NCBI GenBank assembly: GCA_947631995.1
Contig: CANRNT010000009.1
Coordinates: 956-64,955, forward strand
Source of the DNA: an uncultured Clostridia bacterium
Lineage (GTDB): Bacteria; Bacillota; Clostridia; Oscillospirales; Ruminococcaceae
Reading direction: 5' to 3'
Length of the DNA: 64,000 nt
The stretch's first letter is position 1, and every line of letters begins with the position of its first letter. A model generated the notes under the pieces. That model worked only from the letters and a program-made list of their open reading frames with translations, searched no databases and had not been told where the DNA came from. Of this stretch, positions 42,574 to 64,000 are shown in pieces. The position numbers were made by a program, and so were the translations under genes.

Positions 42574-43126
42574 ATGGATAGAAATACTTTAATAAAAATC
42601 AGATGTTATTTGATTTTAAATCCGATTAAAAGAACAAAGTACCTTATTAAAAAAGGAGTATTTAATTCTGTTGGAAAAAACTTTTATTTTTGTCCGAGAA
42701 AAATACCGCAGGATCCGATGCTAATCAGATTTGGCGATAATGTCAAAGTAGCAACAGATGTGTTTTTTGTCACACATGACATTATTCATGATATGGTAAA
42801 TGATATTGAGCCGCCTTTTTCAGACAATAAGCTGGGTAAAGAATTCGGATGTATCGAAGTTAAGAATAATGTTTTTATCGGAGCAGGCTCTATAATTCTG
42901 CCTAATGTTACAATTGGTCCTGATGTAATAGTTGCTGCTGGCAGCGTAGTGACAAAATCTTTCGCGGGGGGTAATAATTGGCGGCAACCCTGCACGTGTA
43001 ATTGGCAGTGTTGAGGATTTGATAAAAAGACGTATAGCGCAAAATCTTGAAAATCCACGTTATAACAATAGGTTTTTTGAAGCAAGACGTCTTTGGACGA
43101 TATGGGATAATGAGGACATTAAATAG
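42574..43126 (+). pseudogene. Hexapeptide-repeat (LbH) acetyltransferase, reading frame broken at a G6 tract (42966-42971)
   Basis: Frame 1 (42574..43014) ends in the nonsense tail GGNNWRQPCTCNWQC*. The +1 frame from 42971 reads VIIGGNPARVIGSVEDLIKRRIAQNLENPRYNNRFFEARRLWTIWDNEDIK* (stop at 43124-43126), which is the canonical acetyltransferase C-terminus. Removing one G restores a product of about 183 aa. Confidence 0.7.
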
Positions 43127-44333
43127 TTTAAGCATATCTGAGTACTGTGGCAAAGGAGGAGAGATTACGAACAAAGGCAAGCTTAGAAGCAAAGTTGCTT
43201 ATATATTAAAACATAATAAGGTGTTATTGACTATCTATAAAACGATAATGAGTGCAGCAATAAAAACGCTAGGAATATTTGTCAAGCGTGATGACTTTCT
43301 CGCTCTGTTTGTTTCGTATAGCGGAAAAAAGTTTGATGACAGTCCACGGGTGTTGTTCGAAGCCATGAAAGCCGATCAACGATTCAAAGGTTTTCATTTT
43401 GTGTGGGCTTTTGAAGAACCTACAAAGTTTAAAATAGAAAATGCAGATACAGTAAGAATAGATTCTTTAAAATATTTTATAACAGCTTTAAAGGCCAAAA
43501 TATGGATAACAAACGTAAATATAGAACGCGGTTTGAATTTCAAAAAGAAAGGGACAATTTTTTTAAATTCTTGGCATGGGACAGGCCCCAAAAAGAACGG
43601 CAATGCCATTAAGACAAGAAATGACTACGATTTTTCAAATGTAGATATTTTTTGCTGTGATGGCGAATACACAAAGAGTCACTTTGTAAAGTGGTTTAAT
43701 GTCCGTGAATCCTCTATGCTGTGGTGCGGAAGACCGCGCGAAGATGAACTATTTGAATTTACGGATGCAGATACGATCAGAATCAGAAAAAAACTGAATA
43801 TTCCCGATGAAAAGCAGGTTCTGTTGTATATGCCTACGTGGAGAGACTATAAGAATTCAGACGCTGATTACTCTTTATGGGAAAAGAGGCTCTGCGATAA
43901 ATATGTTCTTTTGTGCAGAACTCACCACTTTGATATAAAAGTGAAAAGCGTTGAAAATTCAAACGGTTTTTTCATTGATGTTACAACATATCCCGATGTC
44001 AATGAACTGTATTGGGTGGCTGATATATTGATATCAGATTATTCCAGCGCTTTTTTTGACTTTGGCCTTTTAGGAAAACCGATGTTTTGTTTTGCAAACG
44101 ATTATGATAAATTTGCCTCTATTACAGGGCTGTTTATAGATTTAAGATCTGAGTTTCCAAACGGTATAATGGAATCTGACGAGGATTTGATTTCTGCTAT
44201 ATGCAAAATGGATTATGACAAGGAGTGTCAGAAAGTCAAACAATATGTGGCAAAATATGTGTCACACCCCGTGAACGCAACTCAAGCATGTTTAGATAGA
44301 ATGTATGAATTGCTTTGCAAGAAGCTGAGCTAA
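43110..44333 (+). CDS. CDP-glycerol/alditol-phosphate glycerophosphotransferase family protein (TagB/TagF-like)
   Basis: FVSYSGKKFDDSPRVLFEAM, WITNVN, LNSWHGTGPKK, YMPTWRD and LISDYSSAFFDF motifs of the TagF family. The start is uncertain: ATG 43110 is chosen, and the ORF is open from 43047. Confidence 0.8.
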   Translation: MRTLNSLSISEYCGKGGEITNKGKLRSKVAYILKHNKVLLTIYKTIMSAAIKTLGIFVKRDDFLALFVSYSGKKFDDSPRVLFEAMKADQRFKGFHFVWAFEEPTKFKIENADTVRIDSLKYFITALKAKIWITNVNIERGLNFKKKGTIFLNSWHGTGPKKNGNAIKTRNDYDFSNVDIFCCDGEYTKSHFVKWFNVRESSMLWCGRPREDELFEFTDADTIRIRKKLNIPDEKQVLLYMPTWRDYKNSDADYSLWEKRLCDKYVLLCRTHHFDIKVKSVENSNGFFIDVTTYPDVNELYWVADILISDYSSAFFDFGLLGKPMFCFANDYDKFASITGLFIDLRSEFPNGIMESDEDLISAICKMDYDKECQKVKQYVAKYVSHPVNATQACLDRMYELLCKKLS

Positions 44334-44382
44334 CGATAAGTTATGCCATATTGATATAAGCAAAAAAAGACGGTGAAGTCAA

Positions 44383-44832
44383 ATGAAAATTGCAATAGGA
44401 AACGACAGGCAAGGACTCCTTTTAAAAAAAGACTTATTGATTTGGCTGAGTGAAAGCGGCCATGAAGTGACAGACGTCGGAACAAACGAAGATGTTCCTT
44501 GCGATTACCCCATATTTGCTGAGAAAGTCGCGAATCTTGTTTCAAGCGGAGAATGTGAAAGGGGCATTGTTATATGCGCTACGGGCATAGGTATATCCAT
44601 TGCGGCCAATAAAGTTGACGGAATTCGCTGCGGTTTGGCATATGATGATGAAGTGACAAAACTTATGAGGCAACATAATGATGCTAACATGATTGCTTTC
44701 GGTCAAAGGTTTATGTATTTAGAAGATGTCAAGAGAAGACTGGAAATCTTTCTTGATACCGATTTTTCGGGAGGATATCATCAGGAAAGGATAAATCTTA
44801 TATCTCAAATAGAAGAAAGACAGAGGGCATGA
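44383..44832 (+). CDS. RpiB/LacA/LacB-family sugar-phosphate isomerase (divergent active-site motif)
   Basis: MKIAIGND...GIVICATGIGISIAANKV.GIR...HNDANMIAFG matches the RpiB fold. The N-terminal motif reads NDRQG where typical RpiB has SDHAG. Confidence 0.8.
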   Translation: MKIAIGNDRQGLLLKKDLLIWLSESGHEVTDVGTNEDVPCDYPIFAEKVANLVSSGECERGIVICATGIGISIAANKVDGIRCGLAYDDEVTKLMRQHNDANMIAFGQRFMYLEDVKRRLEIFLDTDFSGGYHQERINLISQIEERQRA

Positions 44833-44836
44833 AATA

Positions 44837-45550
44837 GTGAAAGTAAGTGTAGTGATACTTGCCGGAGGTACTGGCAGCAGAATGAAAATAGATATCCCCA
44901 AGCAATTTATTCAGGTCGATGATGTTCCGGTGATCGTAAACACAATCAGCAATTTCCAAAACAATACTCGAATCAACGACATTATCGTCGTTTGTTTGAA
45001 GGATTGGATCGGTTATTTACAGGAACTTGTCATGAAATATCATCTTGATAAAGTAATAAACATTGTCGAAGGTGGTGCTACGGGACATGATTCTACAAGA
45101 AATGGTATTTTTTCTCTATCGGAAACGATGAATGAAGATGATATCGTCGTGATTCATGACGCCGCTCGCCCGCTTATTCCTCAATTGATTATCAACGATA
45201 TGCTGGATACTGCAATCAAGCATGGAAATGCCTGTACTGCAATCAAGGTTCATGACACAGTCATTATTACCGAAGATCAGCAATCAGGTGATACACAAAT
45301 TGAACGCAGCAAAATCATGAGAGTACAAACGCCGCAGGCATACAGATATGGGACGATAAAGAATTTATATCAGCGTGCGGATAAGGAAAACAGACATGAT
45401 TTTATTTATGCCAACACAATGGCTATTACATACGGGGAACGAATTTATTTTTCCACGGGTTTTGACTGCAACATCAAATTGACCACCAAAGAAGATTTGG
45501 CATTTTACAAAGCAATGAAACAATTCAGTGAAGAGGAGTTAACCAAATGA
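44837..45550 (+). CDS. IspD/TarI-family cytidylyltransferase
   Basis: VVILAGGTGSRM...PKQF N-terminal signature, 237 aa. GTG start 4 nt after the preceding stop. Confidence 0.85.
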   Translation: MKVSVVILAGGTGSRMKIDIPKQFIQVDDVPVIVNTISNFQNNTRINDIIVVCLKDWIGYLQELVMKYHLDKVINIVEGGATGHDSTRNGIFSLSETMNEDDIVVIHDAARPLIPQLIINDMLDTAIKHGNACTAIKVHDTVIITEDQQSGDTQIERSKIMRVQTPQAYRYGTIKNLYQRADKENRHDFIYANTMAITYGERIYFSTGFDCNIKLTTKEDLAFYKAMKQFSEEELTK

Positions 45551-46578
45551 TTCTTTCGCCCATCGAAATTAATGAGTTTAAAATATATACAGAGCGATAT
45601 TCGTTCATACCATTTATAAAGGACAAGACTTTTCTTATCACAGGAAGTAATGGAATGATCAGTTCAGGAATAATTAAGTGGATGCTTTATGAAAATAAAA
45701 TTCATGGTGCTAATTGCCGCATTTTTGCGTCTACAAGACATCCTGAGAACATGCCCGATTATCTTGAAACGGACGATAATGTTGTCATGTGTCAGTTTGG
45801 GGCGGAAAGTCAGACTATCGGAAAAGAAAAGATCGATTACATTATTCATGCTGCTGCACCGACGGGCAGAAAATATTTTATATCAAAACCTGTTGAAACT
45901 ATTCGGGTTATAGTAGACGAAACCGAGAGGATGCTTGATTTAGCCAAAGAGAAAAATGCGCAAATGGTTTATCTGTCGTCAGTTGAAGCCTACGGTATCC
46001 CAAACGCCGACATCCCGATCAAGGAGACCTATGTTGGTGCCGTGGACAGCTTAGATATAAGAAATGGGTATCCGATGGGAAAGAAGGCGGCCGAGTTTTT
46101 ATGCTATGCGATGAGTAAAGAGTACGGAGTGAATGTTTACATTGTCAGGCTATCGTCTGTACAGGGGCTGCTCCAGCCCTACAATGAACAGAGAATCTTT
46201 AACGAAATTCTACGATGTGTAATCGAGGGCAAGGACTTGATCATGAAGTCCGATGGGCTCAGCAAAAAGTCAATTGTCTATTCTCTTGATGCAATTAGTG
46301 GCATTTTTACTGTATTGTTCAAAGGTGTATCCGGCGAGGCGTACAATATCACGGACCCATCCACTTATATGACGATGCGTGATTTGACATCCTATGTATT
46401 TGAAAAGTTTAACCCAAATTTGCATATTATTTTCGATATAGAAGATACATCAAAAACCGGATATTTGCCACATCTGGAATTTACTCAGGACATAACGAAG
46501 CTTCAAAAGCTGGGCTGGAAGCCGATTTCCGATTTGGAACACATATACAAAACAGATTTATCGAGATTCGGAGGATAA
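45547..46578 (+). CDS. NAD(P)-dependent epimerase/dehydratase-family SDR (putative reductase)
   Basis: Rossmann motif ITGSNGMISSG, catalytic YPMGKKAAE (YxxxK). ATGA overlap with the upstream gene. Confidence 0.8.
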   Translation: MILSPIEINEFKIYTERYSFIPFIKDKTFLITGSNGMISSGIIKWMLYENKIHGANCRIFASTRHPENMPDYLETDDNVVMCQFGAESQTIGKEKIDYIIHAAAPTGRKYFISKPVETIRVIVDETERMLDLAKEKNAQMVYLSSVEAYGIPNADIPIKETYVGAVDSLDIRNGYPMGKKAAEFLCYAMSKEYGVNVYIVRLSSVQGLLQPYNEQRIFNEILRCVIEGKDLIMKSDGLSKKSIVYSLDAISGIFTVLFKGVSGEAYNITDPSTYMTMRDLTSYVFEKFNPNLHIIFDIEDTSKTGYLPHLEFTQDITKLQKLGWKPISDLEHIYKTDLSRFGG

Positions 46579-46581
46579 GAA

Positions 46582-48369
46582 ATGATATTAGATAAAGTCA
46601 CATCTCCTGCGGATTTAAAAAAGATTCCTGCTGATAAGCTTCCGGAGTTAGCGCAGGAAATCAGAACAGCTCTGATCAATAAAACAAGCAGCTTTGGCGG
46701 GCATCTGGGGTCAAACCTTGGCGTTGTTGAATTGACGATTGCGCTTCACTATGTGTTTGATTCGCCTAAGGACAAAATTGTCTTTGATGTTTCCCATCAA
46801 TGCTATGTTCATAAGATACTGACTGGAAGAAAGGCCGCTTATCTTGATGAAAAGCTTTATCGAAGCGTAACAGGTTATACAAATCCTAAAGAAAGCATTC
46901 ACGATCAGTTCAATGTTGGCCATACCTCCACTTCCATTAGCTTGGCTTGCGGACTTGCTAAAGGCAGAAACATCTGTAACAGAAAAGAAAAAATAATTGC
47001 CGTTATCGGCGACGCGGCTTTAGATGGAGGAGAAGCGTTTGAAGCTTTGAACTCAGCCGTTGAGATTTGCGGAGGTCTTATAGTCGTTGTAAATGATAAC
47101 GACATGTCAATACCTGAAAATCATGGAGCACTTTGTGCGCATCTTGCCGAGCTTCGTAAAAATGAGGGTAAATGTGCAAACAACTTCTTTAAAGTGCTCG
47201 GCTTTGACTATTATTTTGTAAAAGACGGGCACAATATCGGGGATTTAATTGAGACGTTTAATAAGGTAAAAGATATTACATGCCCTGTGGTAGTACATTG
47301 CGTTACGAAAAAGGGAAAAGGATATAGTTTTGCGGAAAACAATCCCGAAAAATGGCATTGGGCGCATCCATTCGATATAGGGACCGGGGAGTTTCACAAA
47401 AGTACCTCTGTTCCGAAGGAAAATTACGGCTCCATTGTTGGGCAATATTTGATGCAAAAAATTAAAAACGATCCTACTGTTGTGGCTATGACAGCGTCAG
47501 TACCAGCGTACATCGGGTTTAATGTACAGAGGAGAAAAGAAGCCGTAAGTCAGTATGTTGATGTGGGAATAGCGGAAGCTAACGGTGTTACTATGGCAGC
47601 TGCAATTGCCAAAAGCGGCGGGAAGCCGGTATTTGTTACGGGCAGCTCGTTTTATCAACGGGCTTACGACCAAATTGAGCAGGAAATGTGTATAAACCGA
47701 TGCGCCGCTACCATGCTTGTCGCATTTTCCGGCATCAACGGACATGACAGCGATGCACATGCCGGTCTATACGACATTGCCTTATTAGGCAATATTCCCG
47801 GATTGATCTATTTAGCTCCATCTAATAAGCAGGAGTATTTGGCAATGCTTGACTGGAGCATTGAGCAAAATGAAAGCCCTGTTGCGATCCGCATCCCTTG
47901 GAACGGCGTTTATTACACAGACAAGCCTGTTCCTCAAGAGTATTCCAAGACGAAATACATGGTCAGAAAGAGCGGGGCGCAAGTTGCAATTCTCGGTCTT
48001 GGAAGCTTCTATCAGCTGGCGGAGCAGGTTGCAGAGCTGATTAATAAAGAACTGCATATTGAACCGACACTTATTGACCCTATGTTTATTACCGGCGTGG
48101 ACAAGCAGTTGCTGGAAGATTTAAAGCATGATCACAAGCTGATTGTCACCTTGGAGGACGGCATCGTTTCCGGCGGCTTTGGCGCAAGAATTTCGCAGTT
48201 TTACGGTATAGATGATATGAAAGTAATAAATTGCGGATTCCATACCGAGGTGCCAACGCAATTTACAGTTGAAGAAATGATGGAGAAAAACGGTCTTATG
48301 CCGGAACAGATACTGCAAAGAGTTAAAGATGTACTCAGTGTCGATGAGGCGAGTGAGGAGAAAAAATGA
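46582..48369 (+). CDS. DXS-like ThDP-dependent enzyme (second copy, glycan-locus paralog)
   Basis: Shares long blocks with the housekeeping Dxs in this window (GGHLGSNLGVVELT, FDSPKDKIVFDVSHQCYVHKILTGR, VGIAE, transketolase-like C-terminal half). The ThDP motif reads GDAALDGG...NDNDMSI, i.e. GDA instead of GDG. Confidence 0.85.
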   Translation: MILDKVTSPADLKKIPADKLPELAQEIRTALINKTSSFGGHLGSNLGVVELTIALHYVFDSPKDKIVFDVSHQCYVHKILTGRKAAYLDEKLYRSVTGYTNPKESIHDQFNVGHTSTSISLACGLAKGRNICNRKEKIIAVIGDAALDGGEAFEALNSAVEICGGLIVVVNDNDMSIPENHGALCAHLAELRKNEGKCANNFFKVLGFDYYFVKDGHNIGDLIETFNKVKDITCPVVVHCVTKKGKGYSFAENNPEKWHWAHPFDIGTGEFHKSTSVPKENYGSIVGQYLMQKIKNDPTVVAMTASVPAYIGFNVQRRKEAVSQYVDVGIAEANGVTMAAAIAKSGGKPVFVTGSSFYQRAYDQIEQEMCINRCAATMLVAFSGINGHDSDAHAGLYDIALLGNIPGLIYLAPSNKQEYLAMLDWSIEQNESPVAIRIPWNGVYYTDKPVPQEYSKTKYMVRKSGAQVAILGLGSFYQLAEQVAELINKELHIEPTLIDPMFITGVDKQLLEDLKHDHKLIVTLEDGIVSGGFGARISQFYGIDDMKVINCGFHTEVPTQFTVEEMMEKNGLMPEQILQRVKDVLSVDEASEEKK

Positions 48370-53344: not shown

Positions 53345-54184
53345 ATGATCCGTAAAATAAAACATATAGTTAAACCAATTATTGTGTTTCTATTTCATTT
53401 TATTTCGGTCATCTATGTTACAATAACAGGAAAAAGGAAAGAATCAGATACTTATTTAAATAATGTTAAAGATAAATACAAGGGTCAAAGGTGTTTTGTT
53501 ATAGGCAATGGACCGAGCTTGACTGCAAAAGATCTTGACAAACTGAAGAATGAAGTAACATTTGCATCTAACAGGATATATAAAATATTTGATCAGACAG
53601 ACTGGAGACCAACATATTTTACGATATTTGATGAGGGCGTAGGAAGAAGTGAAGGTGTAATAGATGGAATAAACTCATTTAAATGTGAAATGAAATTTGT
53701 TAGAGAAGAAGGGCAGTATATATTTGGTAAAATAAAAGGTCCTGTATGTTATGTTCGCTCGCTTTCTTCAAGAAAATATCTCGACAACCCGAATTTTTCC
53801 GAAGATATGACTGAAAAAACATATTCTATTGCAACTGTAACATATATTTCACTCCAGCTTGCACGGCATATGGGTTTTTCCGAAATTTATTTGTTAGGAA
53901 TGGATAACCAATATGCATTTTCTATGCTCAAAGATGGAACTATTGTTAAAAGTGACAATGGTAAAAACTATTTCAGTGATAAAGATGGTGAAAGTCAAAA
54001 GAAACATGAGCAGATTCCAAAATATGCACCGGCAACGTGGGAAATGGATGTAGCATACAGTTTTGCAGAAAAATACTCACGAGAGCATGGATTTAGGATA
54101 TACAATGCAACTCGTGGCGGCAAACTTGAAGTTTTTGAACGCATGGATTTTGACAGCTTGTTTCCGGAAGAAGATAAAAAATGA
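53345..54184 (+). CDS. DUF115 / MptE-like (GT42 CstII-like architecture) putative glycosyltransferase
   Basis: CFVIGNGPSL near the N-terminus and ...LARHMGFSEIYLLGMDNQY parallel the GNGPSL and GYKEIYLSGID motifs of CstII / Maf-type proteins. Confidence 0.6.
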   Translation: MIRKIKHIVKPIIVFLFHFISVIYVTITGKRKESDTYLNNVKDKYKGQRCFVIGNGPSLTAKDLDKLKNEVTFASNRIYKIFDQTDWRPTYFTIFDEGVGRSEGVIDGINSFKCEMKFVREEGQYIFGKIKGPVCYVRSLSSRKYLDNPNFSEDMTEKTYSIATVTYISLQLARHMGFSEIYLLGMDNQYAFSMLKDGTIVKSDNGKNYFSDKDGESQKKHEQIPKYAPATWEMDVAYSFAEKYSREHGFRIYNATRGGKLEVFERMDFDSLFPEEDKK

Positions 54185-55623
54185 ATATTTTATCAAAATA
54201 TAAAAGTTTGCCAACCCAAGTAAAAGCCACAATCTGGTTTGTAGCTTGCCAAGCAATTCAAAGCGGCTGCCGTTTTCTTGCAATGCCCTTTCTGGTGCGC
54301 CTGCTGACAACCGAACAGTACGGTATCTACAGTGTGTTTTTATCATGGCTGCAAATCATAACTTTATTTGCAACTTTGAATTTACATTGTGGCGTTTATA
54401 ACAATGCCATGTACAAATTTCCTGACCGCAGAAGCAGCTATACATCGGCATCGCAAAGCTTGTCCGTAGTCTGCACTTTTCTCTGCTTTGGAATCTATTT
54501 AATATTTCAAAATGCGTGGGATATGCTCTTTGGCATAAAACCTCTGTATGTTGTTCTTATTTTTGTTCAGCTATTGTTTACAGAGAGTTTCATGCTTTGG
54601 TCAGGTCGGCAACGATATGAATACAGATATATCAATCTGCTGATTTATACCGCCTTACTTGCTGTACTATACATGATTTTCCCCGTTGCAACGGCAGCAA
54701 TTTTTCCACAAGAACAGAGATTGACTGCTGTAATTGTAAGCGGTGTAATTGTTCATGCCGGTATAGGTCTTGGATTCATGATTTACAACTATATCAAAGG
54801 CAAGACATTTTATAATCGTGAATATTGGGGCTACTCTCTGAAATTCAATATTCCGCTGATACCGCACTATCTGTCTGGTATTGTTCTCGGACAAGCTGAT
54901 CGCATAATGATAAAAAAGTATATTGGCACGGCAGAAGCAGGTATTTACAGCTTTACATACAATATTTCACTTGTAATCAATATTATTACCGGTTCAATCA
55001 ATAATGCAATTGTCCCATATACTTATGAAAAACTAAAAAACAGGGATTACAAAAATCTAAAGAAAATATCTATTTTTCTTTTACTTATGATCGGCGGAAT
55101 GTGCCTTTCATTTTCGGCAATTGCTCCGGAATTACTGAAAATATTTGCAACAGAAGAATATTATGATGCAGTTTATCTTGTTCCGGTTATTTGTCTGAGT
55201 TCATACTTCACATTTCTTTACAGTTTGTTTGGAAACATCGAATTTTTCTTTGAAGCAAATAAATTTATCACAATGGCATCAATTACCGGCGCGGTCGTTA
55301 ATGTTATCTTAAATTACGTTTTAATGCCGATTTTCGGCTATTATGCGGCTGGATATACAACGCTTTTCTGCTATATTGTGTTCAGTCTGGGACATTACAT
55401 TTTTATGCGTATCGTTTGTAAGAAAAAGATTGACGGTGATAAAGTATACAATGGCACTGCAATTCTGTTGATTTCCATTGCATTTGTACTGTTGGCATTT
55501 GGTATGATGTTGATTTACGATTATCCGCTGATTCGCTACACGCTGATTCTTATAGCAATTGTGGTTTGCTTTATGAGGCGTGAACGTATCATAGGCTATT
55601 TTAAGATGATAAAGGAGAAATAA
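54181..55623 (+). CDS. Wzx-type oligosaccharide flippase (MOP superfamily)
   Basis: 480 aa, about 12-14 TMs, typical polysaccharide-biosynthesis-protein layout. ATGA overlap with the upstream gene. Confidence 0.8.
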   Translation: MNILSKYKSLPTQVKATIWFVACQAIQSGCRFLAMPFLVRLLTTEQYGIYSVFLSWLQIITLFATLNLHCGVYNNAMYKFPDRRSSYTSASQSLSVVCTFLCFGIYLIFQNAWDMLFGIKPLYVVLIFVQLLFTESFMLWSGRQRYEYRYINLLIYTALLAVLYMIFPVATAAIFPQEQRLTAVIVSGVIVHAGIGLGFMIYNYIKGKTFYNREYWGYSLKFNIPLIPHYLSGIVLGQADRIMIKKYIGTAEAGIYSFTYNISLVINIITGSINNAIVPYTYEKLKNRDYKNLKKISIFLLLMIGGMCLSFSAIAPELLKIFATEEYYDAVYLVPVICLSSYFTFLYSLFGNIEFFFEANKFITMASITGAVVNVILNYVLMPIFGYYAAGYTTLFCYIVFSLGHYIFMRIVCKKKIDGDKVYNGTAILLISIAFVLLAFGMMLIYDYPLIRYTLILIAIVVCFMRRERIIGYFKMIKEK

Positions 55624-55626
55624 ATT

Positions 55627-56280
55627 ATGAAAATTGTAGGAGTTACACCTGTCAAGATGAACAATGTAAGAACACCCGGCAAAAATACAAAACTATTAAG
55701 TGATGGAACTCCATTGATCCATCTTATCCAAAAAGCAATGTTAAATATTCCTGAAATTGATGACTACTATGTTTACTGTAGTAATGAAAAAATACAGGAC
55801 TTTTTGCTTGAAGGAACTAAATACATGAAACGTGATACAATGTTTGATACTGCTGAAGCTGATGTTATAGAAATGATGTATCAGTTTTCTTTGCTTGTTG
55901 ATGCAGATGTATATATACAAATTCACGCAACTACTCCGTTTATTTCAAGTAAATCTATTCAAAAAGGAATTGAAATGATAAAAAAAGGTTATGATTCCAC
56001 ATTCGCTGTAAAGAAAATGCAAGATTTTTTATGGACTAATGAGAAACCTTTGAACTATTCGTTAGAAAAAATACCAAGAACACAAGATATGCAGCCGTTT
56101 TTCATTGAAACAACAGGAATGTACATATATACAAAGGATGTAATACAAAAATTGCATCGTCGAATTGGAAACAACCCATATTTATTGGAAGTTTCTGAAA
56201 TCGAGTCTATTGATATTGATGACCCGATAGATTTTGAAATTGCAGATGCGATTTATTCAAAAATTGTCAAGAAAAAATGA
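55627..56280 (+). CDS. Acylneuraminate (NeuA/KdsB-type) cytidylyltransferase family protein
   Basis: 217 aa. N-terminal P-loop-like ...VKMNNVRTPGKNTKLL and ...IQIHATTPF motif resemble CTP_transf_3 enzymes. Confidence 0.7.
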   Translation: MKIVGVTPVKMNNVRTPGKNTKLLSDGTPLIHLIQKAMLNIPEIDDYYVYCSNEKIQDFLLEGTKYMKRDTMFDTAEADVIEMMYQFSLLVDADVYIQIHATTPFISSKSIQKGIEMIKKGYDSTFAVKKMQDFLWTNEKPLNYSLEKIPRTQDMQPFFIETTGMYIYTKDVIQKLHRRIGNNPYLLEVSEIESIDIDDPIDFEIADAIYSKIVKKK

Positions 56281-56289
56281 GGAATAAAA

Positions 56290-57867
56290 ATGCAGAATAT
56301 TCACGTTTTAGATTGCACCTTGCGTGACGGCGGATATGTGAACAATTGGGAATTTGGAGAAAAAAACATCAAAGAAATAGCTGAAAGGCTATGTGATTCA
56401 GCAATTGAATATCTTGAATGCGGATTTTTAAGCGAAACAAAATCAAGCACAGAACAACAAAGCATTTTTCAATCAATTCAAAATGCAAATGAAAAATTTG
56501 CTGGCTGTTCTCGTCATATTGCGCTTATGGTGAATTGCGGAGAAGTAAAAGCAGACGACATTCCGGTATATAACAGTGGAAAAGTATCTTTAATAAGAAT
56601 TGCTTTCCACAAACATCAGATAGAAGAAGCACAGGATTTATGCAGTAAGTTAAAGGAAAAAGGCTATAGAGTTTTCTTTCAGCCCATGGTAACAATGAGT
56701 TACAGCGACCAAGAATTGCTTGATTTGATCCAATGGGCAAATAGAAGCGAACCTGATGCGTTTTACATTGTTGACAGTTTTGGAACAATGAGAAAAAACG
56801 AGGTTATGCGCTTCTTTTATCTGATAGACAACAATCTGGATCCAAAAATAAAAATCGGTTTTCATTCGCATAATAATCTGCAATTGTCATTTTCCAACGC
56901 GCAAGAATTGATGATGATGAACTCAAAACGGGATATTATCATAGACTCCTCCGTCTTCGGTATGGGCAGGGGCGCAGGAAATCTCTGCACAGAGCTTCTG
57001 ACACAGTACATAAACGAAAATATAGAGAACAAATACGACCTTATACCGATTTTGGAGATAATGGACGAGTACATAATGACAATATATTCCACACGTCCGT
57101 GGGGGTATTCCGCGCCGTATTACATAGCCGCGATAAACAATTGTCACCCGAATTATGCAACATTTCTGATGAACAAGCAGACGCTGTGTATTCGCGACAT
57201 CAATACGATCATAAGAAGTATCCCGGAAGAAAACAAACGCCTATACAGCGTTGATCTTATCTCGGAACTTTACAAAAATTATCAGCAGCACAATATTGAC
57301 GACAGCGAAATGCTTCAAAAAGTAAAAGAGTTGTGCAGCGCAAGAAAAGTATTGATACTTGCTCCCGGAAAAAGTCTTGCAACTTATTCTGATAAGATCA
57401 GACAGTTCATTGAGGATAATTCTCCTGTAATTTTTGCTATAAATCACATTCCGAAAAAATTTCCGTATGACATTGTGTTTGTCAGCAATCTGAAACGTTT
57501 TAAGGGGCTAGACGATGCTGTTGAGAAACTTGGAGAGCATCTGATATGCACATCTAATATCTCAACAGAACACGCTGTAAATTATTCTTCGTATCTTAAT
57601 GAGGAGGAGATAATTTCAGACAACGCCGGACTTATGCTTATCAATTTTCTTAAAAAGGCGGCTGTGCATGATCTGTATCTTGCAGGCTTTGACGGTTTTC
57701 AGACATCGGGCGAGGAAAACTATTTTGACGGGAAAATGAATCTGAATATCCAGTATCAGAAACGCGAAGAAATGAATCTCGCGATCATAAGATATATTTT
57801 GAAACTAAAACAGAATCTGAACGTCAATTTCCTGACACCGACGATTTATGATACAGGTGATGCGTGA
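56290..57867 (+). CDS. DRE-TIM (HMGL-like) pyruvate aldolase/synthase domain fused to a C-terminal DUF115-like domain
   Basis: N-terminal VLDCTLRDGGY...HSHNN metal-site motifs of the HMGL-like / 4-hydroxy-2-oxovalerate-aldolase family. The C-terminal ~190 aa (VLILAPGKSL...LYLAGFDGF) echo the GNGPSL/..LGMD pattern of 53345..54184. Confidence 0.7.
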   Translation: MQNIHVLDCTLRDGGYVNNWEFGEKNIKEIAERLCDSAIEYLECGFLSETKSSTEQQSIFQSIQNANEKFAGCSRHIALMVNCGEVKADDIPVYNSGKVSLIRIAFHKHQIEEAQDLCSKLKEKGYRVFFQPMVTMSYSDQELLDLIQWANRSEPDAFYIVDSFGTMRKNEVMRFFYLIDNNLDPKIKIGFHSHNNLQLSFSNAQELMMMNSKRDIIIDSSVFGMGRGAGNLCTELLTQYINENIENKYDLIPILEIMDEYIMTIYSTRPWGYSAPYYIAAINNCHPNYATFLMNKQTLCIRDINTIIRSIPEENKRLYSVDLISELYKNYQQHNIDDSEMLQKVKELCSARKVLILAPGKSLATYSDKIRQFIEDNSPVIFAINHIPKKFPYDIVFVSNLKRFKGLDDAVEKLGEHLICTSNISTEHAVNYSSYLNEEEIISDNAGLMLINFLKKAAVHDLYLAGFDGFQTSGEENYFDGKMNLNIQYQKREEMNLAIIRYILKLKQNLNVNFLTPTIYDTGDA

Positions 57868-58502
57868 TGAAACAGCTTGTTATTTTTGATATGGACGGCA
57901 CGCTTGCCGACACTTCCGAAGGCATTTTTAACAGCATTCGCTGCACGCAAAAAATGATGGATCTGCCTGAGATCACATATGAGCAAATGCTTTCTCATGT
58001 AGGGCCGCCAATGGAAGAATCGTATCACAGAAATTTTGGACTTACGGGCGAAAAATTGCAGCAGGCGGTGAAATTTCACAAGGAATATGCCATGCAAAAA
58101 GGCTACCGCGAGCTGAAAGTTTATGACGGGATAATTGACCTGCTGAAAGAATTACGGAAAAACAAAATAAAAACGACGATTGCAACGCTTAAAGCGCAGT
58201 CAACGGCAGAGAAAATCGCAGATGAGTATTTCCCGGATCTGTTTGATCTAATTATAGGCGCTGATGTAAACACTCCCAAAACAAAGGTCCAAATGCTACT
58301 AGAATGTACAAATAAAACTCTGGTAAAAAAAGAAAATGCCGTCCTTGTCGGGGACAGCATTTATGATGTCAAAGGCGCAGCGGGAGCAGAAATTGATTTT
58401 ATTGCTGTGACTTATGGGTTTGGGTTTAAAGCCGATGAACAAACTTTGGCAGAGCATATTGCTGTTGCAAACGCTCCTGCGGACTTAATAAAGTATGTAT
58501 AG
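57867..58502 (+). CDS. HAD-superfamily phosphatase (subfamily IA-like)
   Basis: FDMDGTLADT motif I, a T/S motif II region, and a VGDSIYD motif IV region. ATG 57867 overlaps the upstream TGA (TGATG). GTG 57864 is an alternative start. Confidence 0.8.
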   Translation: MKQLVIFDMDGTLADTSEGIFNSIRCTQKMMDLPEITYEQMLSHVGPPMEESYHRNFGLTGEKLQQAVKFHKEYAMQKGYRELKVYDGIIDLLKELRKNKIKTTIATLKAQSTAEKIADEYFPDLFDLIIGADVNTPKTKVQMLLECTNKTLVKKENAVLVGDSIYDVKGAAGAEIDFIAVTYGFGFKADEQTLAEHIAVANAPADLIKYV

Positions 58503-58739: not shown

Positions 58740-58768
58740 TTGACAATCGCTCATAAAAGCAGTATATT
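58740..58768 (+). promoter_or_regulatory. Sigma-A promoter of the secreted-protein gene
   Basis: TTGACA (58740-58745), 17-nt spacer, TATATT (58763-58768). A GGAGGA RBS precedes ATG 58817. Confidence 0.55.
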
Positions 58769-58816: not shown

Positions 58817-59461
58817 ATGAAAAGACCTATTGCTTTTTTATCGGCGGCTATTTTGTTTTTATGCAGCTCGGCTGTAACAGCTTTTGCTGATGAGACCCCC
58901 AATTACAAGGTAGAGGTTGATAGGATATCCGACGGCGAAGTGGTCTTAGTTGGCGAAAACGGCATATATTCTTCTGCCGATGAATTGGCAAAGCTTACCT
59001 CCATTACACTTACAATAACAGTTGACCCCACTTCAGTCAACGCCACAGGAAGCTTTGTTATAGAAGCGGGAGACACTCAAACATACAGTTGGTCTCTTAA
59101 AGAGGAAACTGATATAGTTTTTACAGAGATAGCTGAGGACAGCAACATATACACCGCGGAAGTTACAGGCATAAGTATTCCATCAGGAAGCAAGTCCGTT
59201 AAGATAAAGTTTTTGCAGGACGGCGGCAATGATGTTTCGTTGACGGGAGTAACACTCAACGGAGCAGGCAAGCCTAAGGAAGTCGTGGTTGATCCTGCTT
59301 CATCGGAAGCAAGCTCACAGGAGGAAATATCATCGAGCGAGAGCAGCTCTTCAAATAAGCCTGCCGACAGCAGCAACAAACCGACGGGCGCAGGAGTAGG
59401 ACTGGTACTTGCGGGAACAGCTTTGGCTGCCGCTATGATAGTCTCCTCAAAGAAAAAGTGA
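58817..59461 (+). CDS. Secreted, C-terminally membrane-anchored protein of unknown function
   Basis: Signal peptide (...AVTAFADE), a domain of about 140 aa, a Ser-rich linker, and a C-terminal hydrophobic helix plus KKK. Confidence 0.7.
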   Translation: MKRPIAFLSAAILFLCSSAVTAFADETPNYKVEVDRISDGEVVLVGENGIYSSADELAKLTSITLTITVDPTSVNATGSFVIEAGDTQTYSWSLKEETDIVFTEIAEDSNIYTAEVTGISIPSGSKSVKIKFLQDGGNDVSLTGVTLNGAGKPKEVVVDPASSEASSQEEISSSESSSSNKPADSSNKPTGAGVGLVLAGTALAAAMIVSSKKK

Positions 59462-59479
59462 CAGATATTATACAACAAA

Positions 59480-59524
59480 CCCTTATCCCGAAGAAGCAGC
59501 TTTTCGGATAAGGGTATTTTATTT
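59480..59524 (+). terminator. Rho-independent terminator
   Basis: CCCTTATCC(C)G ... CGGATAAGGG stem followed by TATTTTATTT. Confidence 0.7.
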
Positions 59525-59587
59525 GCGTTATATGTTATGAAATCACAAAAAATGTAAGCTTTTATTAATAGGAGCATATTAATATAA

Positions 59588-59616
59588 TTGACAACTATAT
59601 TCATGTGTGATATAAT
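59588..59616 (+). promoter_or_regulatory. Near-consensus sigma-A promoter of the phosphonate operon
   Basis: TTGACA (59588-59593), 17-nt spacer, TGaTATAAT (extended -10, TATAAT at 59611-59616). Located 35 nt upstream of ATG 59651. Confidence 0.65.
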
Positions 59617-59650
59617 AATACTATTAGTAAATCATGAATGGGGTAAAAAA

Positions 59651-61660
59651 ATGAAGGCTTTAATACTAAACTCCGGTCTTGGCAGCAGAATGGGAGTGCT
59701 TACTTCGGAGCAGCCTAAGTGCATGACCGAGATATCGGCAAAAGAAACAATACTGAGCCGTCAGCTCAGACAGCTTGCAGATGCCGGGATCGAAGATGTC
59801 GTAATAACGACCGGATATTATGACAGCGTTCTTGTTAATTATTGCAATTCACTTGAATTGCCGCTGCATATCACTTTTGTGAAAAACCCTGTCTACGACA
59901 GTACAAATTACATTTACAGTATCTACTGTGCACGGAATTATCTTGATGATGATATCATTCTTATGCACGGCGACCTTGTGTTTGAAAATGAAGTCTTTGA
60001 TCGTGTGATCGCTTCCGATGTCTCGTGCATGACCGTATCTTCTACTCTGCCATTGCCCGAAAAGGATTTTAAAGCAAGAGTGGTTGACGGCAAGGTAATG
60101 CAGGTCGGTGTTGACATCTTTAATGAAGCGATGGAAGCGCAGGCGCTTTACAGGCTTAAAAAGGACGATTGGAAGATCTGGCTGAATAAGATCGTCGAGT
60201 TCTGCGAGAATGATAAGCGAAATGTATATGCCGAAAACGCGCTGAACGAGCTGAACGGAGCCGCTGATATTTCTGCTCTTGATGTCGAAAACCTCCTCTG
60301 CTCCGAGATCGACGACCCGAAGGATCTTGCTGTCGTAAGTGCAAAGCTTAATGAGATCGAATCCCGTACAGTATATATGTGCTTTTCAACAGACATCATT
60401 CACGGCGGGCACATTTCTATTATCAAAAAAGCACAGCGTCTCGGAAAGCTTATCGTTGGCGTGTTGTCAGACGAAGCGGTCACATCGTATAAACGGTTTC
60501 CGCTTGTTCCTGCAAAAGAGAGAAAGAAGCTCTTTGCAAATATCGCAGGAGTATATAAGGTCGTCGATCAAAAAACGCTGTCATATGCCGATAACCTTGA
60601 AAAATATAAGCCTGATATAGTTGTGCACGGCGACGACTGGGTCAGCGGATTTCAAAGACCTATACGCGATGAGGTAACATCAATTCTTTCGTCTTACGGC
60701 GGAAAATTGGTCGAATACCCTTATTCGTCAAACGAAAGATACCAAGAGCTTGAAAACCGCACACGTTCTGAGCTTTCCACACCGGATATGAGAAGAGCAA
60801 GACTACGCAGGATACTCTCCATGAAAGGCACAGTAACGGCAATGGAGGCGCACAGCGGTCTTACAGGTCTTATCGTGGAGAATACCGTGGTATACGAAAA
60901 CGGCGGTGCAAGACAGTTCGACGCTATGTGGATCAGTTCTCTCTGCGACTCTACGGCTAAGGGAAAGCCGGATATTGAATTGGTCGATATGACATCGCGT
61001 TTTCGCACAATAGACGATATATGCGAGGTAACTACCAAGCCTATTATCTTTGACGGCGATACAGGTGGTCTTACGGAGCATTTCGTGTATACCGTAAAGA
61101 GTCTTGAACGCATGGGCGTTTCCATGATAATAATAGAAGATAAAACAGGTCTGAAAAAGAATAGCCTTTTCGGCACGGAGGTAAGTCAGACCCAAGCGTC
61201 TATACCTGACTTCTGTGAAAAAATACGAGCAGGCAAAAAGGCGCAAAAGACAAAAGACCTTATGATATGTGCAAGGATAGAGAGCCTTATCCTTGAAAAA
61301 GGCATGGACGACGCGCTGGAGAGAGCATTCGCTTTTACTGATGCAGGCGCTGACGCTATCATGATACACAGCCGTAAAAAAGAACCCGATGAGATATTTG
61401 ATTTTGTCGCCAAGTTCAGAGAAAAGGATAAGACCACTCCTATCGTAGTAGTTCCGACCTCTTTCAATACAGTAACAGAGGAAGAATTCAAAGCGCGCGG
61501 CGTAAATATCATCATCTATGCAAATCAGTTGACAAGAGCAGGTTTTCCTGCTATGCAGAATGCGGCAAAGCTTATCCTTGAAAATCACAGAGCCAAAGAA
61601 TGTGACGATATATGTATGCCTTTCAAGGATATTATCCGCCTTATACCGGAGGAAAACTGA
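59651..61660 (+). CDS. Tri-domain fusion: LicC/PntC-like nucleotidyltransferase + HxGH cytidylyltransferase-like domain + phosphoenolpyruvate mutase
   Basis: N-terminal LILNSGLGSRMG (NTP-transferase). Middle FSTDIIHGGHISIIKKA (HxGH cytidylyltransferase fold). C-terminal PepM with DGDTGG and the EDKX5NS signature (IEDKTGLKKNS). Start trimmed to ATG 59651. Confidence 0.85.
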   Translation: MKALILNSGLGSRMGVLTSEQPKCMTEISAKETILSRQLRQLADAGIEDVVITTGYYDSVLVNYCNSLELPLHITFVKNPVYDSTNYIYSIYCARNYLDDDIILMHGDLVFENEVFDRVIASDVSCMTVSSTLPLPEKDFKARVVDGKVMQVGVDIFNEAMEAQALYRLKKDDWKIWLNKIVEFCENDKRNVYAENALNELNGAADISALDVENLLCSEIDDPKDLAVVSAKLNEIESRTVYMCFSTDIIHGGHISIIKKAQRLGKLIVGVLSDEAVTSYKRFPLVPAKERKKLFANIAGVYKVVDQKTLSYADNLEKYKPDIVVHGDDWVSGFQRPIRDEVTSILSSYGGKLVEYPYSSNERYQELENRTRSELSTPDMRRARLRRILSMKGTVTAMEAHSGLTGLIVENTVVYENGGARQFDAMWISSLCDSTAKGKPDIELVDMTSRFRTIDDICEVTTKPIIFDGDTGGLTEHFVYTVKSLERMGVSMIIIEDKTGLKKNSLFGTEVSQTQASIPDFCEKIRAGKKAQKTKDLMICARIESLILEKGMDDALERAFAFTDAGADAIMIHSRKKEPDEIFDFVAKFREKDKTTPIVVVPTSFNTVTEEEFKARGVNIIIYANQLTRAGFPAMQNAAKLILENHRAKECDDICMPFKDIIRLIPEEN

Positions 61661-62766
61661 TGCAGAAGATATTTACCGCAGAGGATTATAACAGCGCTCT
61701 GGACGGGTATTTCAAAGATTTGGGAGCAAAGAAAATACTGCTTGTGTGCGATGCTTTTGCAGAGAATTTGCGCCCATACGGATATTTTTCCGACTTAGGA
61801 AGACTAGGGATTGAGGTTATCAGGTTTAGTGATTTCGGGCCTAATCCGGAATATGATTCTGTAGTATCAGGAGTTAAGTCGTTTAATGAAAACGGCTGCG
61901 ATGCGGTTGCAGCGATTGGCGGAGGCTCGGCTTTAGATGTTGCCAAGTGCATAAAGCTGTTTGCCAAAATGGACAGCGGCAGCAATTTTCTCGAGCAGCA
62001 AGCAGCTTTCAATAACATTCCTCTTTTTGTTGTTCCTACTACCGCGGGAACAGGCAGCGAAGCGACACGTTTTGCAGTTATCTACTTTAATGGCGCGAAG
62101 CAAAGCGTTACTCATGACAGCATCATTCCGCAGGCTGTATTGCTTGATGCGGAGGTTTTAAAGTCGCTTCCCGAATATCAGAGAAAGTCCACAATGTTAG
62201 ATGCGCTTTGTCACGCGGCAGAATCATTTTGGTCGGTCAATTCCACGGAAGAGAGCAAGGCTCACAGCACGAAGGCTATAAGGCTCATACTCGACAACAT
62301 GGACGGATATCTTTCCAATATCCCCGAGGCGAACGCAAATATGCTTCTTGCCGCCAATATTGCAGGAAAAGCTATCAACATAACACAGACGACCGCAGGA
62401 CACGCCATGTGCTACAAGCTCACATCTCTTTACGGTATTGCGCACGGTCATGCTGCTGCTCTGTGTGTAAAAGAATTGTTTCCGTATATGATAAGTAACG
62501 TTGATAAATGTATCGATAAAAGGGGCCGTTCATACCTTGAAGATACTTTTGCCGATATAGCTTTGGCATTTGACTGTTCTTCCGCACAGGAGGCGGCAGC
62601 GCGGTTCGGCAAACTGTTTAAAGGACTGGAGCTGCCTGTCCCGAAAGCCGATGAAAAGGATTTTGAAATTTTGAAAAAATCAGTAAATCCTGTTCGCTTG
62701 AAGAACAATCCGATAGAGCTGGACGAGGATACAATAGATATGCTTTATCACAAAATACTTGACTGA
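61660..62766 (+). CDS. Iron-containing alcohol dehydrogenase (putative phosphonoacetaldehyde reductase)
   Basis: GGGSALDVAKC and H...H metal motifs (AGHAMCYKL...HGHAAA). TGATG overlap with the PepM fusion. Positioned between pepM and ppd. Confidence 0.75.
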   Translation: MQKIFTAEDYNSALDGYFKDLGAKKILLVCDAFAENLRPYGYFSDLGRLGIEVIRFSDFGPNPEYDSVVSGVKSFNENGCDAVAAIGGGSALDVAKCIKLFAKMDSGSNFLEQQAAFNNIPLFVVPTTAGTGSEATRFAVIYFNGAKQSVTHDSIIPQAVLLDAEVLKSLPEYQRKSTMLDALCHAAESFWSVNSTEESKAHSTKAIRLILDNMDGYLSNIPEANANMLLAANIAGKAINITQTTAGHAMCYKLTSLYGIAHGHAAALCVKELFPYMISNVDKCIDKRGRSYLEDTFADIALAFDCSSAQEAAARFGKLFKGLELPVPKADEKDFEILKKSVNPVRLKNNPIELDEDTIDMLYHKILD

Positions 62767-62776
62767 GGTAAATAAA

Positions 62777-63898
62777 ATGAAAGTACAAAAACTAGTTGAT
62801 ATAATAGGCTCAGATTTTTACACGGGCGTGCCTGACAGCCAGCTAAAGGCGCTGTGCAACTATCTTATGTCTGAATACGGCATAGACCCAAAGCACCACG
62901 TCATAGCCGCCAACGAGGGCAACGCCGTCGCTCTTGCCGCAGGTTATCACCTCGCAACGGGCGATACACCTGTTGTATATATGCAAAACAGCGGCGAGGG
63001 CAATATCATAAACCCCGTCGCAAGCCTTATGAACGATAAGGTTTACGCTATCCCTTGCGTGTTCGTCATAGGCTGGAGGGGCGAGCCCGGCGTTCACGAT
63101 GAACCTCAGCACATCTATCAGGGCGAGGTGACCCTTAAACTGCTCGAAGATATGGACATAGCCGCTTTTGTTATCTCAAAAGAAACGACGGAGAGCGAGC
63201 TTTCCGAAAAAATGGAAAGCTTCAGAAAACTTCTTGCAGTCGGAAAACAGGTCGCGTTTGTAGTAAGAAAGGGCGCGCTGGAGTTTGACGGCAAGGTGAA
63301 GTATGAAAACAGCAACAGTATGGTGCGTGAGGACATCATAAAGCATATCGTTGAATATACGGGTAACGACCCGATAGTTTCAACAACCGGCAAGGCGAGC
63401 CGTGAGCTGTTTGAGATACGCGAAGGCAGAGGAGAAGACCACAAGAGGGATTTTCTTACTGTCGGTTCTATGGGGCACGCTTCGTCTATCGCGCTCGGCA
63501 TAGCATTTCAAAAGCCCGACCAAAAGATATGGATAATAGACGGCGACGGCGCTGCGCTTATGCACTTGGGTGCTATGGCTGTGATAGGCGCGAATGCTCC
63601 AAAGAATATAGTACACATTGTTATAAATAACGGAGCGCATGAAACCGTTGGCGGTATGCCTACCGTTGCAGGAAACATCGACCTTGTCACGATAGCCAAA
63701 GGCTGCGGATATCCGTGTGCAATAAAGGCTGAAAGTTTTGAAGAGCTTGACCAAGCGTTGGCATTGGCAAAAGAACGCGATGGGCTTTGGCTGATAGAGG
63801 TTTCCTGCTCGATAGGGGCGCGCGACGACCTCGGCAGACCGACGACAACGGCAAGGGAGAACAAAGAGGCGTTTGTAGAAAATTTACGCGGCAAATAA
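62777..63898 (+). CDS. Phosphonopyruvate decarboxylase
   Basis: N-terminal FYTGVPDSQLK motif typical of Ppd/AepY. ThDP motif IDGDGAALMHLG...NNGAHETVGG. 373 aa from ATG 62777. Confidence 0.85.
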   Translation: MKVQKLVDIIGSDFYTGVPDSQLKALCNYLMSEYGIDPKHHVIAANEGNAVALAAGYHLATGDTPVVYMQNSGEGNIINPVASLMNDKVYAIPCVFVIGWRGEPGVHDEPQHIYQGEVTLKLLEDMDIAAFVISKETTESELSEKMESFRKLLAVGKQVAFVVRKGALEFDGKVKYENSNSMVREDIIKHIVEYTGNDPIVSTTGKASRELFEIREGRGEDHKRDFLTVGSMGHASSIALGIAFQKPDQKIWIIDGDGAALMHLGAMAVIGANAPKNIVHIVINNGAHETVGGMPTVAGNIDLVTIAKGCGYPCAIKAESFEELDQALALAKERDGLWLIEVSCSIGARDDLGRPTTTARENKEAFVENLRGK

Positions 63899-64000
63899 TT
63901 TTGCATAATAAATCACCCGACGATCTTCTGATCTGACCCCAAAAAGTTAGACAAAAATATAAAAATAAATTTATGCAAAGCGACTAAGAGCAATCTTGGT

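Follow-up and report, generated by a model that had tools for sequence, protein, structure and literature searches.

What does a bacterium make with a phosphonate operon whose first protein carries two different nucleotide-activating domains ahead of a phosphoenolpyruvate (PEP) mutase? The question is raised by the last genes of a 64,000-nucleotide stretch of DNA from an uncultured Clostridia bacterium (GenBank assembly GCA_947631995.1, contig CANRNT010000009.1, positions 956 to 64,955 of the forward strand), referred to below as the window. Three genes encode here a fusion of two nucleotidyltransferase domains (N and M) with a PEP mutase (PepM), an iron-dependent alcohol dehydrogenase (ADH) and a phosphonopyruvate decarboxylase (Ppd; see Table 1 for coordinates). 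We consider it probable that this operon supplies an activated phosphonate, namely 2-hydroxyethylphosphonate (HEP) linked to cytidine monophosphate (CMP-HEP), for the decoration of a cell-surface glycan.

Enzymes of the operon and the predicted pathway

The fusion protein is 669 amino acids (aa) long; the 670 aa given in a preliminary description of this DNA had included the stop codon. Pfam assigns aa 3-121 to NTP_transf_3 (PF12804), aa 248-344 to CTP_transf_like (PF01467) and aa 386-642 to PEP_mutase (PF13714, E 3.8e-55). The mutase domain scores 398.5 bits on the NCBIfam equivalog TIGR02320 (cut-off 319.55) and matches PEP mutases in the PDB (5UNC, E 4e-42; 1M1B, E 1e-36). Its EDKTGLKKNS segment (aa 496-505, positions 61136-61165) fits the EDKX5NS motif that sets PEP mutases (Ppm) apart from the rest of the isocitrate-lyase superfamily (PMC6697681); across 75 homologues E, D, K, N and S never vary, and the five residues in between are 90-100% conserved. 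With PF12804, PF01467 and PF13714 joined in a single polypeptide that has this motif, the protein is a triple-fusion Ppm. An exact database look-up of the 669-aa protein gave no match. In near-identical contigs (at most 5 kb long and ending inside ppd) the fusion is called from an upstream ATG, as a protein of 685 aa.

The decarboxylase Ppd reaches 468.8 bits on the equivalog TIGR03297 (cut-off 312.5) and carries the thiamine diphosphate (ThDP) motif GDGAALMH...NN at aa 256-285 (63542-63631). The core of mutase plus decarboxylase that the preliminary description had proposed therefore stands, with both enzymes above their equivalog cut-offs and both motifs in place. The remaining enzyme, encoded together with pepM and ppd, is an Fe-ADH (PF00465, E 8.5e-37) whose nearest NCBIfam families include the phosphonate-associated Fe-ADH TIGR03405 and sulfoacetaldehyde reductase. 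It is 46% identical to a Segatella copri protein named phosphonoacetaldehyde reductase in RefSeq.

It is because of this Fe-ADH that HEP, rather than 2-aminoethylphosphonate (AEP), is the likely product. The same preference had been voiced in the preliminary description, and it is borne out by the relatives, in which an Fe-ADH is conserved beside pepM and ppd and no transaminase is associated with them. An AEP pathway was rejected on the grounds that class-V aminotransferases are absent from the recurrent neighbour families on either side of about 64 related loci and that the ADH is conserved. HEP catabolism was rejected as well, since PepM and Ppd are biosynthetic.

From the domain identities, motifs, fold matches, operon structure and neighbourhood statistics, all directly observed, we infer the substrates, the CMP-HEP product and its transfer to a glycan. 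The PEP mutase domain would convert PEP to phosphonopyruvate, which Ppd would irreversibly decarboxylate to phosphonoacetaldehyde; the Fe-ADH would then reduce this aldehyde to HEP. Reaction of HEP with cytidine triphosphate (CTP) would give CMP-HEP, an analogue of a CDP-alcohol (CDP, cytidine diphosphate), from which a CMP-releasing phosphotransferase of the LicD or TagF type would esterify the phosphonate onto a sugar hydroxyl.

Two nucleotidyltransferase domains on one chain

Among solved structures, M matches best the cytidylyltransferase (CyTase) domain of Fom1, 5X3D (phmmer E 3.7e-37, 49.6% identity), and the model of M superposes on the HEP-CMP-bound 5X3D with a TM score of 0.93 and a root-mean-square deviation of 1.0 A (Foldseek). 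Fom1 acts in the fosfomycin biosynthesis of Streptomyces, and its structure (PDB 5X3D) was reportedly described by Cho and co-workers in 2017. As is demanded of a Fom1-type domain, M sits directly N-terminal to the PEP mutase. Within its HGGH motif (aa 251-254) H254 is invariant, while H251 and G253 are at least 90% conserved, and the C-terminal PYSxDxKY motif is also conserved among the homologues. The Fom1 CyTase turns HEP and CTP into HEP-CMP (PMC9088020; PMC6697681). These comparisons support M as the counterpart of the Fom1 CyTase, predicted to make CMP-HEP. What had been described as an HxGH cytidylyltransferase fold is thus a real domain but not a generic one: it is specifically Fom1-CyTase-like, which strengthens the assignment of CMP-HEP.

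For N, the LicC/PntC-like NTP-transferase that had been noted ahead of the mutase is confirmed by fold, profile and signature alike. A profile of the N family (58 members) matches LicC of Streptococcus pneumoniae (1JYK, E 7e-28, positions 2-238) and PntC of Treponema denticola (Tde-PntC, 6PD1, E 2e-22) over the full length. With Foldseek the best match of the N model is the PntC-AEP-transaminase fusion (PntC-AEPT) 6PD2 (E 1e-15), and LicC 1JYK is matched with a TM score of 0.81. The signature of LicC and PntC, GXG(T/S)RX4-8PK, which contains Arg15 and Lys25 in Tde-PntC (Rice et al. 2019, PMC6697681), appears in N as GxGSRx8PK at aa 9-23 (GLGSRMGVLTSEQPK; G9-L-G-S-R13-x8-P22-K23), with G9, G11, R13 and K23 invariant across architectures. 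N further carries H106-G-D108, K138/D139, E195 and E219/D221; D108, K138/D139, E195 and E219/D221 are invariant or nearly so, and the acidic pair that serves as magnesium ligand is shared with PntC and LicC.

The head-group pocket is where N departs from these relatives. In PntC, Glu104 and Glu196 hydrogen-bond the amine of AEP, and their equivalents in LicC are Asp105 and Asp192 (Rice et al. 2019, PMC6697681). N has kept the second acid of the pair (E195, equivalent to Glu196), whereas the first is replaced: PntC Glu104, in the motif E-S-D, aligns with the nearly invariant His106, at least 90% conserved in the subfamily. Since this pair is incomplete, N is not an AEP- or choline-type member of the family, although it would act in the same manner. 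Moreover, His in place of Glu leaves one negative charge fewer in the pocket, so that the neutral hydroxyl of HEP would probably fit better than an ammonium group. We read N from these residues as a putative HEP-adapted 'PntC' that would feed the transferase. The partner of the N subfamily points the same way: it is an ADH (HEP), against a transaminase (AEP) in the PntC-AEPT fusion Tde1415 of T. denticola. The N-ADH fusions described below are in this sense the hydroxy counterpart of the PntC-transaminase fusion, which ties N to the ADH product. In the structural alignments N is about 15-20% identical to PntC and LicC, and its substrate is a prediction.

Both domains, then, are real and different, as the preliminary description had it, and both keep their catalytic motifs. 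That description had named a degenerate domain as a point to be checked; we found that neither N nor M lacks catalytic residues, and that the two are equally conserved. Over the 75 homologues the mean identity to the residue in the window is 0.75 for N and 0.755 for M (0.85 for PepM); on this conservation we rejected a degenerate nucleotidyltransferase domain. An AlphaFold model of aa 1-384 (59651-60802), built on 73 sequences, reached a pLDDT of 91.2 and a pTM of 0.85; N and M are predicted to form one compact unit of fixed mutual orientation rather than beads on a string.

To what extent the two domains travel together was seen from a search with N alone against 1.8 billion representative proteins, which returned 207 matches below 1e-30. 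These are stand-alone proteins of about 240 aa (for instance P0125, on a 1.3-kb contig) and the fusions N-ADH (about 600 aa), N-M-ADH (about 750 aa) and N-ADH-LicD (about 900 aa; single polypeptides P0164, P0289 and P0183). A tighter alignment search of the loci with the N family returned mainly close triple fusions. The arrangements are diverse. One locus (L087) has M-PepM, Ppd and N-ADH followed by three LicD genes; a related cluster has N-ADH, a kinase-like gene, M-PepM, a methyltransferase and Ppd. In another locus N-M-ADH adjoins LicD, with no PepM within 9 kb. In L089, L090 and L091 (also L132, L144, L146 and L157) the order is M-PepM, a Metallophos (phosphodiesterase-like) gene and N-M-ADH, together with several LicD genes. 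As many as four nucleotidyltransferase domains are found in some related clusters.

Every fusion arrangement found (N-M-PepM, N-ADH plus M-PepM, and N-M-ADH) comes with both N and M. Given this constancy, neither is a relic and both seem to be needed; they are probably not redundant. The M domains adjacent to N form a clade of their own: they are 61-77% identical to each other and to M of the window, whether fused to PepM or to ADH, whereas the PepM-fused M domains in the same loci are merely 38-45% identical to N-adjacent M domains and to M of the window.

Relatives, glycan loci and the boundaries of the operon

The best 120 database matches are 81-100% identical and all cover the full-length fusion. 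A scan with one genome per species, a set that lacks the genome of the window, gave about 490 relatives; the best 80 of these, kept for neighbourhood work, are 75-85% identical and come from Ruminococcaceae, Lachnospiraceae, Oscillospiraceae and others, mostly from rumen or gut genomes. The fusion is followed by ADH in 73 and by Ppd in 66 of the 78 genome loci (many of the exceptions are contig ends), and both are present in 30 of the 39 metagenome loci with enough downstream sequence. Over 100 related loci have the trio of fusion, ADH and Ppd within a variable glycan locus, often right behind LicD or TagF-type genes; the genes around it vary and are glycan-related (flippases, polymerases, glycosyltransferases). 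For about 64 loci we classified the products of the two upstream neighbours of the fusion, 125 proteins in all, and counted 17 LicD, 13 flippases, 10 TagF-type Glyphos_transf, 7 sulfatase-type and 3 Stealth proteins. LicD genes occur in 28 of the 78 related loci; of the 42 loci with full flanks, 23 have a LicD, TagF, sulfatase or Stealth gene no more than 10 kb away.

Two loci illustrate the setting. The first, L002 (ENA ERZ27249236 NODE_56), is from the same species, with a flanking Complex1_51K / NADH-oxidoreductase gene that is 98% identical. Its cassette (fusion 87% identical) sits well inside a glycan island: LicD lies two genes ahead of it, and GT9, Wzy and heptose genes come behind it. 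Compared with positions 36.7-64 kb of the window, the chromosomal site is the same but the island content is wholly different, and the initiating transferase is just 77% identical. The glycan island at this site is hypervariable, with the cassette inserted in it as a module, and the sister strain suggests that the island of the window continues past position 64000. The L002 island also holds an acyltransferase and a B12 radical-SAM (S-adenosylmethionine) gene that is HpnJ-like. The latter was considered as a candidate Fom3 and not supported: its best match, HpnJ, is below the cut-off of that family, and no match to Fom3 was found.

The second locus (L173) is from Segatella copri DSM 18205 (Bacteroidota; NZ_CP085933.1, 116520-136526, on a 167-kb replicon) and encodes a 73%-identical triple fusion. 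RefSeq lists aepX, aepY, phosphonoacetaldehyde reductase, a CDP-glycerol glycerophosphotransferase-family (TagF-family) protein, Wzy and Wzx in this order, and the cassette lies in an O-antigen-type locus. An identity of 73% across phyla indicates horizontal transfer of the cassette. Fusion homologues also occur on two short, unannotated contigs labelled 'Bacteriophage sp.' from human faeces (GenBank MT837901.1 and MT836947.1); one is 54.6% identical over aa 90-666, the other 60.6% over aa 239-667.

The link to a glycan thus stands when set against homologues, solved structures and related loci, of which over 150 were covered. The preliminary description had gone further and suggested attachment to the abutting polymer. 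The glycan link itself is upheld through the relatives, including L002, but in the window a secreted-protein gene, which has a promoter and a terminator of its own, stands between the cassette and the glycan genes, and no LicD gene accompanies the cassette.

The cassette is a transcription unit of its own, because a terminator upstream closes the preceding gene and a promoter of its own is present. The terminator hairpin has a dG of -19.3 kcal/mol (z -4.43), and none of 200 shuffles folded equally well. The promoter, described earlier as near-consensus with an extended -10 element, matches the consensus at 12 of 12 positions plus the TG extension; it is the sole such site in the 64 kb, and none of 100 shuffles gave any match. 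The ADH start codon overlaps the stop codon of the fusion by 1 nt, and the three-gene operon is translationally coupled. This start is probable from gene calls on a near-identical contig, as is that of Ppd from the GAGG ribosome-binding site ahead of it and the gene call in the near-identical locus L001. The window ends 102 nt past the ppd stop; a search of metagenome contigs with the junction of ppd and the intergenic region, for sequence past position 64000, gave no match.

Table 1. Features of the phosphonate operon and its upstream boundary (positions in the window)
Feature	Position	Strand	Details
Three co-directional genes (N-M-PepM fusion, Fe-ADH, Ppd)	59588-63898	+	
Intrinsic terminator of the preceding secreted-protein gene	59479..59525	+	Hairpin (59479-59515) followed by a U-rich tract; delimits the cassette upstream
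Sigma-70 promoter	59588..59616	+	TTGACA, 17-nt spacer, TG-extended TATAAT (TTGACA-17-TGaTATAAT)
N-M-PepM fusion gene	59651-61660	+	ATG 59651, stop TGA 61658-61660; 669 aa plus stop
N domain, LicC/PntC-fold nucleotidyltransferase	59651..60358 (aa 1-236)	+	PF12804
M domain, Fom1-type HxGH cytidylyltransferase	60368..60775 (aa 240-375)	+	H251-G-G-H254 and PYSxDxKY
PEP mutase domain	60803..61660 (aa 385-669)	+	EDKTGLKKNS motif
Fe-dependent ADH, predicted phosphonoacetaldehyde reductase (PhpC/FomC type)	61660..62766	+	368 aa; PF00465 and PF25137; probable start ATG 61660
Phosphonopyruvate decarboxylase (Ppd)	62777..63898	+	373 aa; TIGR03297; probable start 62777

The secreted protein between the glycan genes and the operon (58817-59461, 214 aa, promoter at 58740-58768) has no Pfam match. 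It has a signal peptide and a Ser-rich stalk; a KPTGAG segment, the hydrophobic stretch behind it and a KKK tail may form a variant sortase sorting signal. Further upstream, a glycan locus at 43047-48369 encodes a TarF-like glycerophosphotransferase, an IspD/TarI-like cytidylyltransferase, a short-chain dehydrogenase/reductase (SDR) and a second bona fide dxs, which scores 803 bits on NF008968 (cut-off 510); the housekeeping dxs occupies 16347-18200. From this set of genes, one component of the glycan may be a polyol phosphate that stems from deoxyxylulose phosphate and is activated with CDP, which would be unusual. The genes at 53345-58502 (an MptE-like/DUF115 protein, a Wzx flippase, a CTP_transf_3 protein resembling CMP-ulosonic-acid synthetases, an HMGL-like aldolase extended at its C terminus by about 270 aa, and a HAD phosphatase) look like a NeuB-independent route to a CMP-activated keto-acid sugar.

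Alternative readings and relation to known systems

Several observations weigh against CMP-HEP as a glycan donor. Two domains that both make CMP-HEP would be redundant, which fits poorly with their strict co-occurrence. In the clusters L089-L091, which have N, M, ADH and PepM, no Ppd lies within 10 kb; this ADH and nucleotidyltransferase family can therefore act beyond HEP, and these clusters imply a non-HEP product, such as a hydroxy acid derived from phosphonopyruvate, or cytidylylated intermediates. A minority of triple-fusion genes (L134, L141) is not followed by ADH and Ppd. The ADH of the window scores 141 bits on TIGR03405 (PsrA type), below the cut-off of 423.7; PhpC-type enzymes are reported to be very divergent (PMC13576164), so that this shortfall leaves a function as phosphonoacetaldehyde reductase possible. 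Genes of the LicD, sulfatase and Stealth types are absent from the 64 kb, and hence no LicD is encoded along with the cassette. Its only TagF-like gene (43047-44333) lies 15 kb upstream beside IspD-like, SDR and Dxs genes, neighbours that would give it another donor. We considered this gene as the HEP transferase and did not find support: it is 20-38% identical to the TagF-like genes that adjoin the fusion elsewhere, and genes for another donor stand beside it. Finally, the searched literature holds no biochemical data on any triple-fusion member, nor a biochemical study of HEP glycans in Clostridia.

Given the two activating domains, it might be argued that N and M act on different substrates and that the cassette yields more than plain CMP-HEP. 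One of them could cytidylylate phosphonopyruvate, phosphonoacetaldehyde or a second head group, with the final donor left to the other domain; or CMP-HEP could be donor and, via its free hydroxyl, acceptor, with LicD or TagF enzymes building oligo- or poly-HEP. The omnipresence of both domains would be explained in this way, as would clusters with three or four nucleotidyltransferase domains and as many as five LicD genes; in its evolution N-M behaves as a single unit, with a predicted compact fold, and the Ppd-less clusters with their Metallophos gene suggest cytidylylated intermediates other than HEP. In addition, a Ppm-fused nucleotidyltransferase and a separate PntC are often found in one cluster, the fused one having no assigned role (PMC6697681). 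Nonetheless, we regard a two-substrate scheme as rather doubtful: the closest characterised relatives act on C2 phosphonates at the end of their pathways (Fom1 on HEP, PntC on AEP), the minimal conserved cassette is without the kinase or hydrolase that a multi-step scheme needs, the fosfomycin pathway runs on M alone, and the sequence indicates no second substrate. Still less probable in our view is that N-M is an obligate two-enzyme activation module exclusive to hydroxy-phosphonate pathways, cytidylylating different species (HEP and a second phosphate or phosphonate, or monomeric HEP and HEP esterified to HEP) from which LicD or TagF enzymes assemble a teichoic-acid-like oligo- or poly-HEP. 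If true, many gut and rumen Clostridia and some Bacteroidota would carry poly-HEP, with C-P bonds in the backbone and resistance to phosphodiesterases and phosphatases.

The apparent redundancy could also mean that one of the domains is non-catalytic, a module for structure, oligomerisation or CTP/CMP-sensing regulation of the mutase. The predicted rigid packing of N against M could be architectural, and M has PYSxDxKY in place of RTxGISTT, the classical C-terminal motif of HxGH enzymes. PYSxDxKY is a conserved motif too, however, and at the aligned position PYTPG is seen in the Fom1 domain, which was crystallised and is active; since N retains every catalytic signature (GxGSRx8PK, D108 and E219/D221), as does M (HxGH), and both domains are similarly conserved in the 75 homologues and in other architectures, we think a silent domain quite improbable. 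The least credible reading is that the cassette feeds a diffusible natural product, with transient cytidylylation as in fosfomycin biosynthesis. M-PepM, Ppd and Fe-ADH do correspond to Fom1, Fom2 and FomC, and in the window the cassette is a free-standing operon, with a terminator and an unrelated gene between it and the glycan genes. Relatives, on the other hand, place it in Wzx/Wzy-type glycan loci beside LicD or TagF genes, and the strain of the same species has it within its glycan locus. Radical-SAM, HppE and DUF402 families are absent from the recurrent neighbours of about 64 loci, and no Fom3, FomD or HppE was found in the cassette (sequence seen up to position 64000). Supply of CMP-HEP to a surface glycan is therefore the reading we retain.

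Comparison with known systems shows which parts of this reading are familiar. The cassette shares with Streptomyces Fom1/Fom2/FomC an HxGH CyTase fused N-terminally to PEP mutase, a Ppd and an HEP-making Fe-ADH. It differs in the extra LicC/PntC-like domain ahead of M and in having no Fom3 methyltransferase, FomD hydrolase or HppE epoxidase. The context is also different (glycan loci of gut and rumen anaerobes against an actinomycete antibiotic cluster), and CMP-HEP, a transient intermediate in fosfomycin biosynthesis, would here be the final donor. The logic of the Pnt clusters is alike, with a Ppm-fused nucleotidyltransferase, Ppd, PntC fused to the last enzyme of the pathway and LicD alongside. 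In the Bcs1/TarIJ and TagD/TagF systems a reductase and a cytidylyltransferase yield a CDP-alcohol; its transfer by a TagF-family enzyme sets CMP free. The N-ADH fusions mirror the CDP-ribitol synthase Bcs1, but the beta-phosphorus would here be a phosphonate (C-P) instead of a phosphate ester, and the enzymes are not homologous to TarI/TarJ.

The triple fusion is already published as an architecture, and RefSeq already annotates a 73%-identical copy with its neighbours. Rice et al. (2019, PMC6697681, Fig. 2b) counted 42 Ppm proteins with PF12804, PF01467 and PF13714 (2.8% of Ppm), identical in architecture to the protein of the window; the class was counted there without biochemistry, neighbourhoods or product. 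For HEP glycans, Li and Horsman 2022 (PMC8942020) list PhpC-type neighbourhoods and a single product isolated up to then, from Stackebrandtia. The phosphonoglycans of Stackebrandtia nassauensis and Glycomyces resemble our prediction in that PepM, Ppd and a PhpC-type ADH lead to HEP esterified to exopolysaccharide; these are actinomycetes, and no triple fusion is documented in them (PMC8942020).

Phosphonate decoration alters the charge, antigenicity and enzyme resistance of the bacterial surface. To our knowledge, such tailoring has so far been worked out biochemically for AEP only. The HEP-type cassette is a compact, horizontally mobile module that plugs into hypervariable glycan islands. What keeps its interest is why N is paired with M, a question made directly testable by the His-for-Glu prediction and by the permutations of the fusion. 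A protein with both nucleotidyltransferase types is, moreover, a handy system for the role of PEP mutase-fused nucleotidyltransferases, a question since 2019. HEP-decorated surfaces probably occur widely among gut and rumen anaerobes. HEP-glycans would then, if confirmed, be a surface feature that is common in these organisms and has gone unrecognised, with a bearing on phage receptors, on immune recognition and, because HEP catabolic genes are widespread, on phosphorus cycling.

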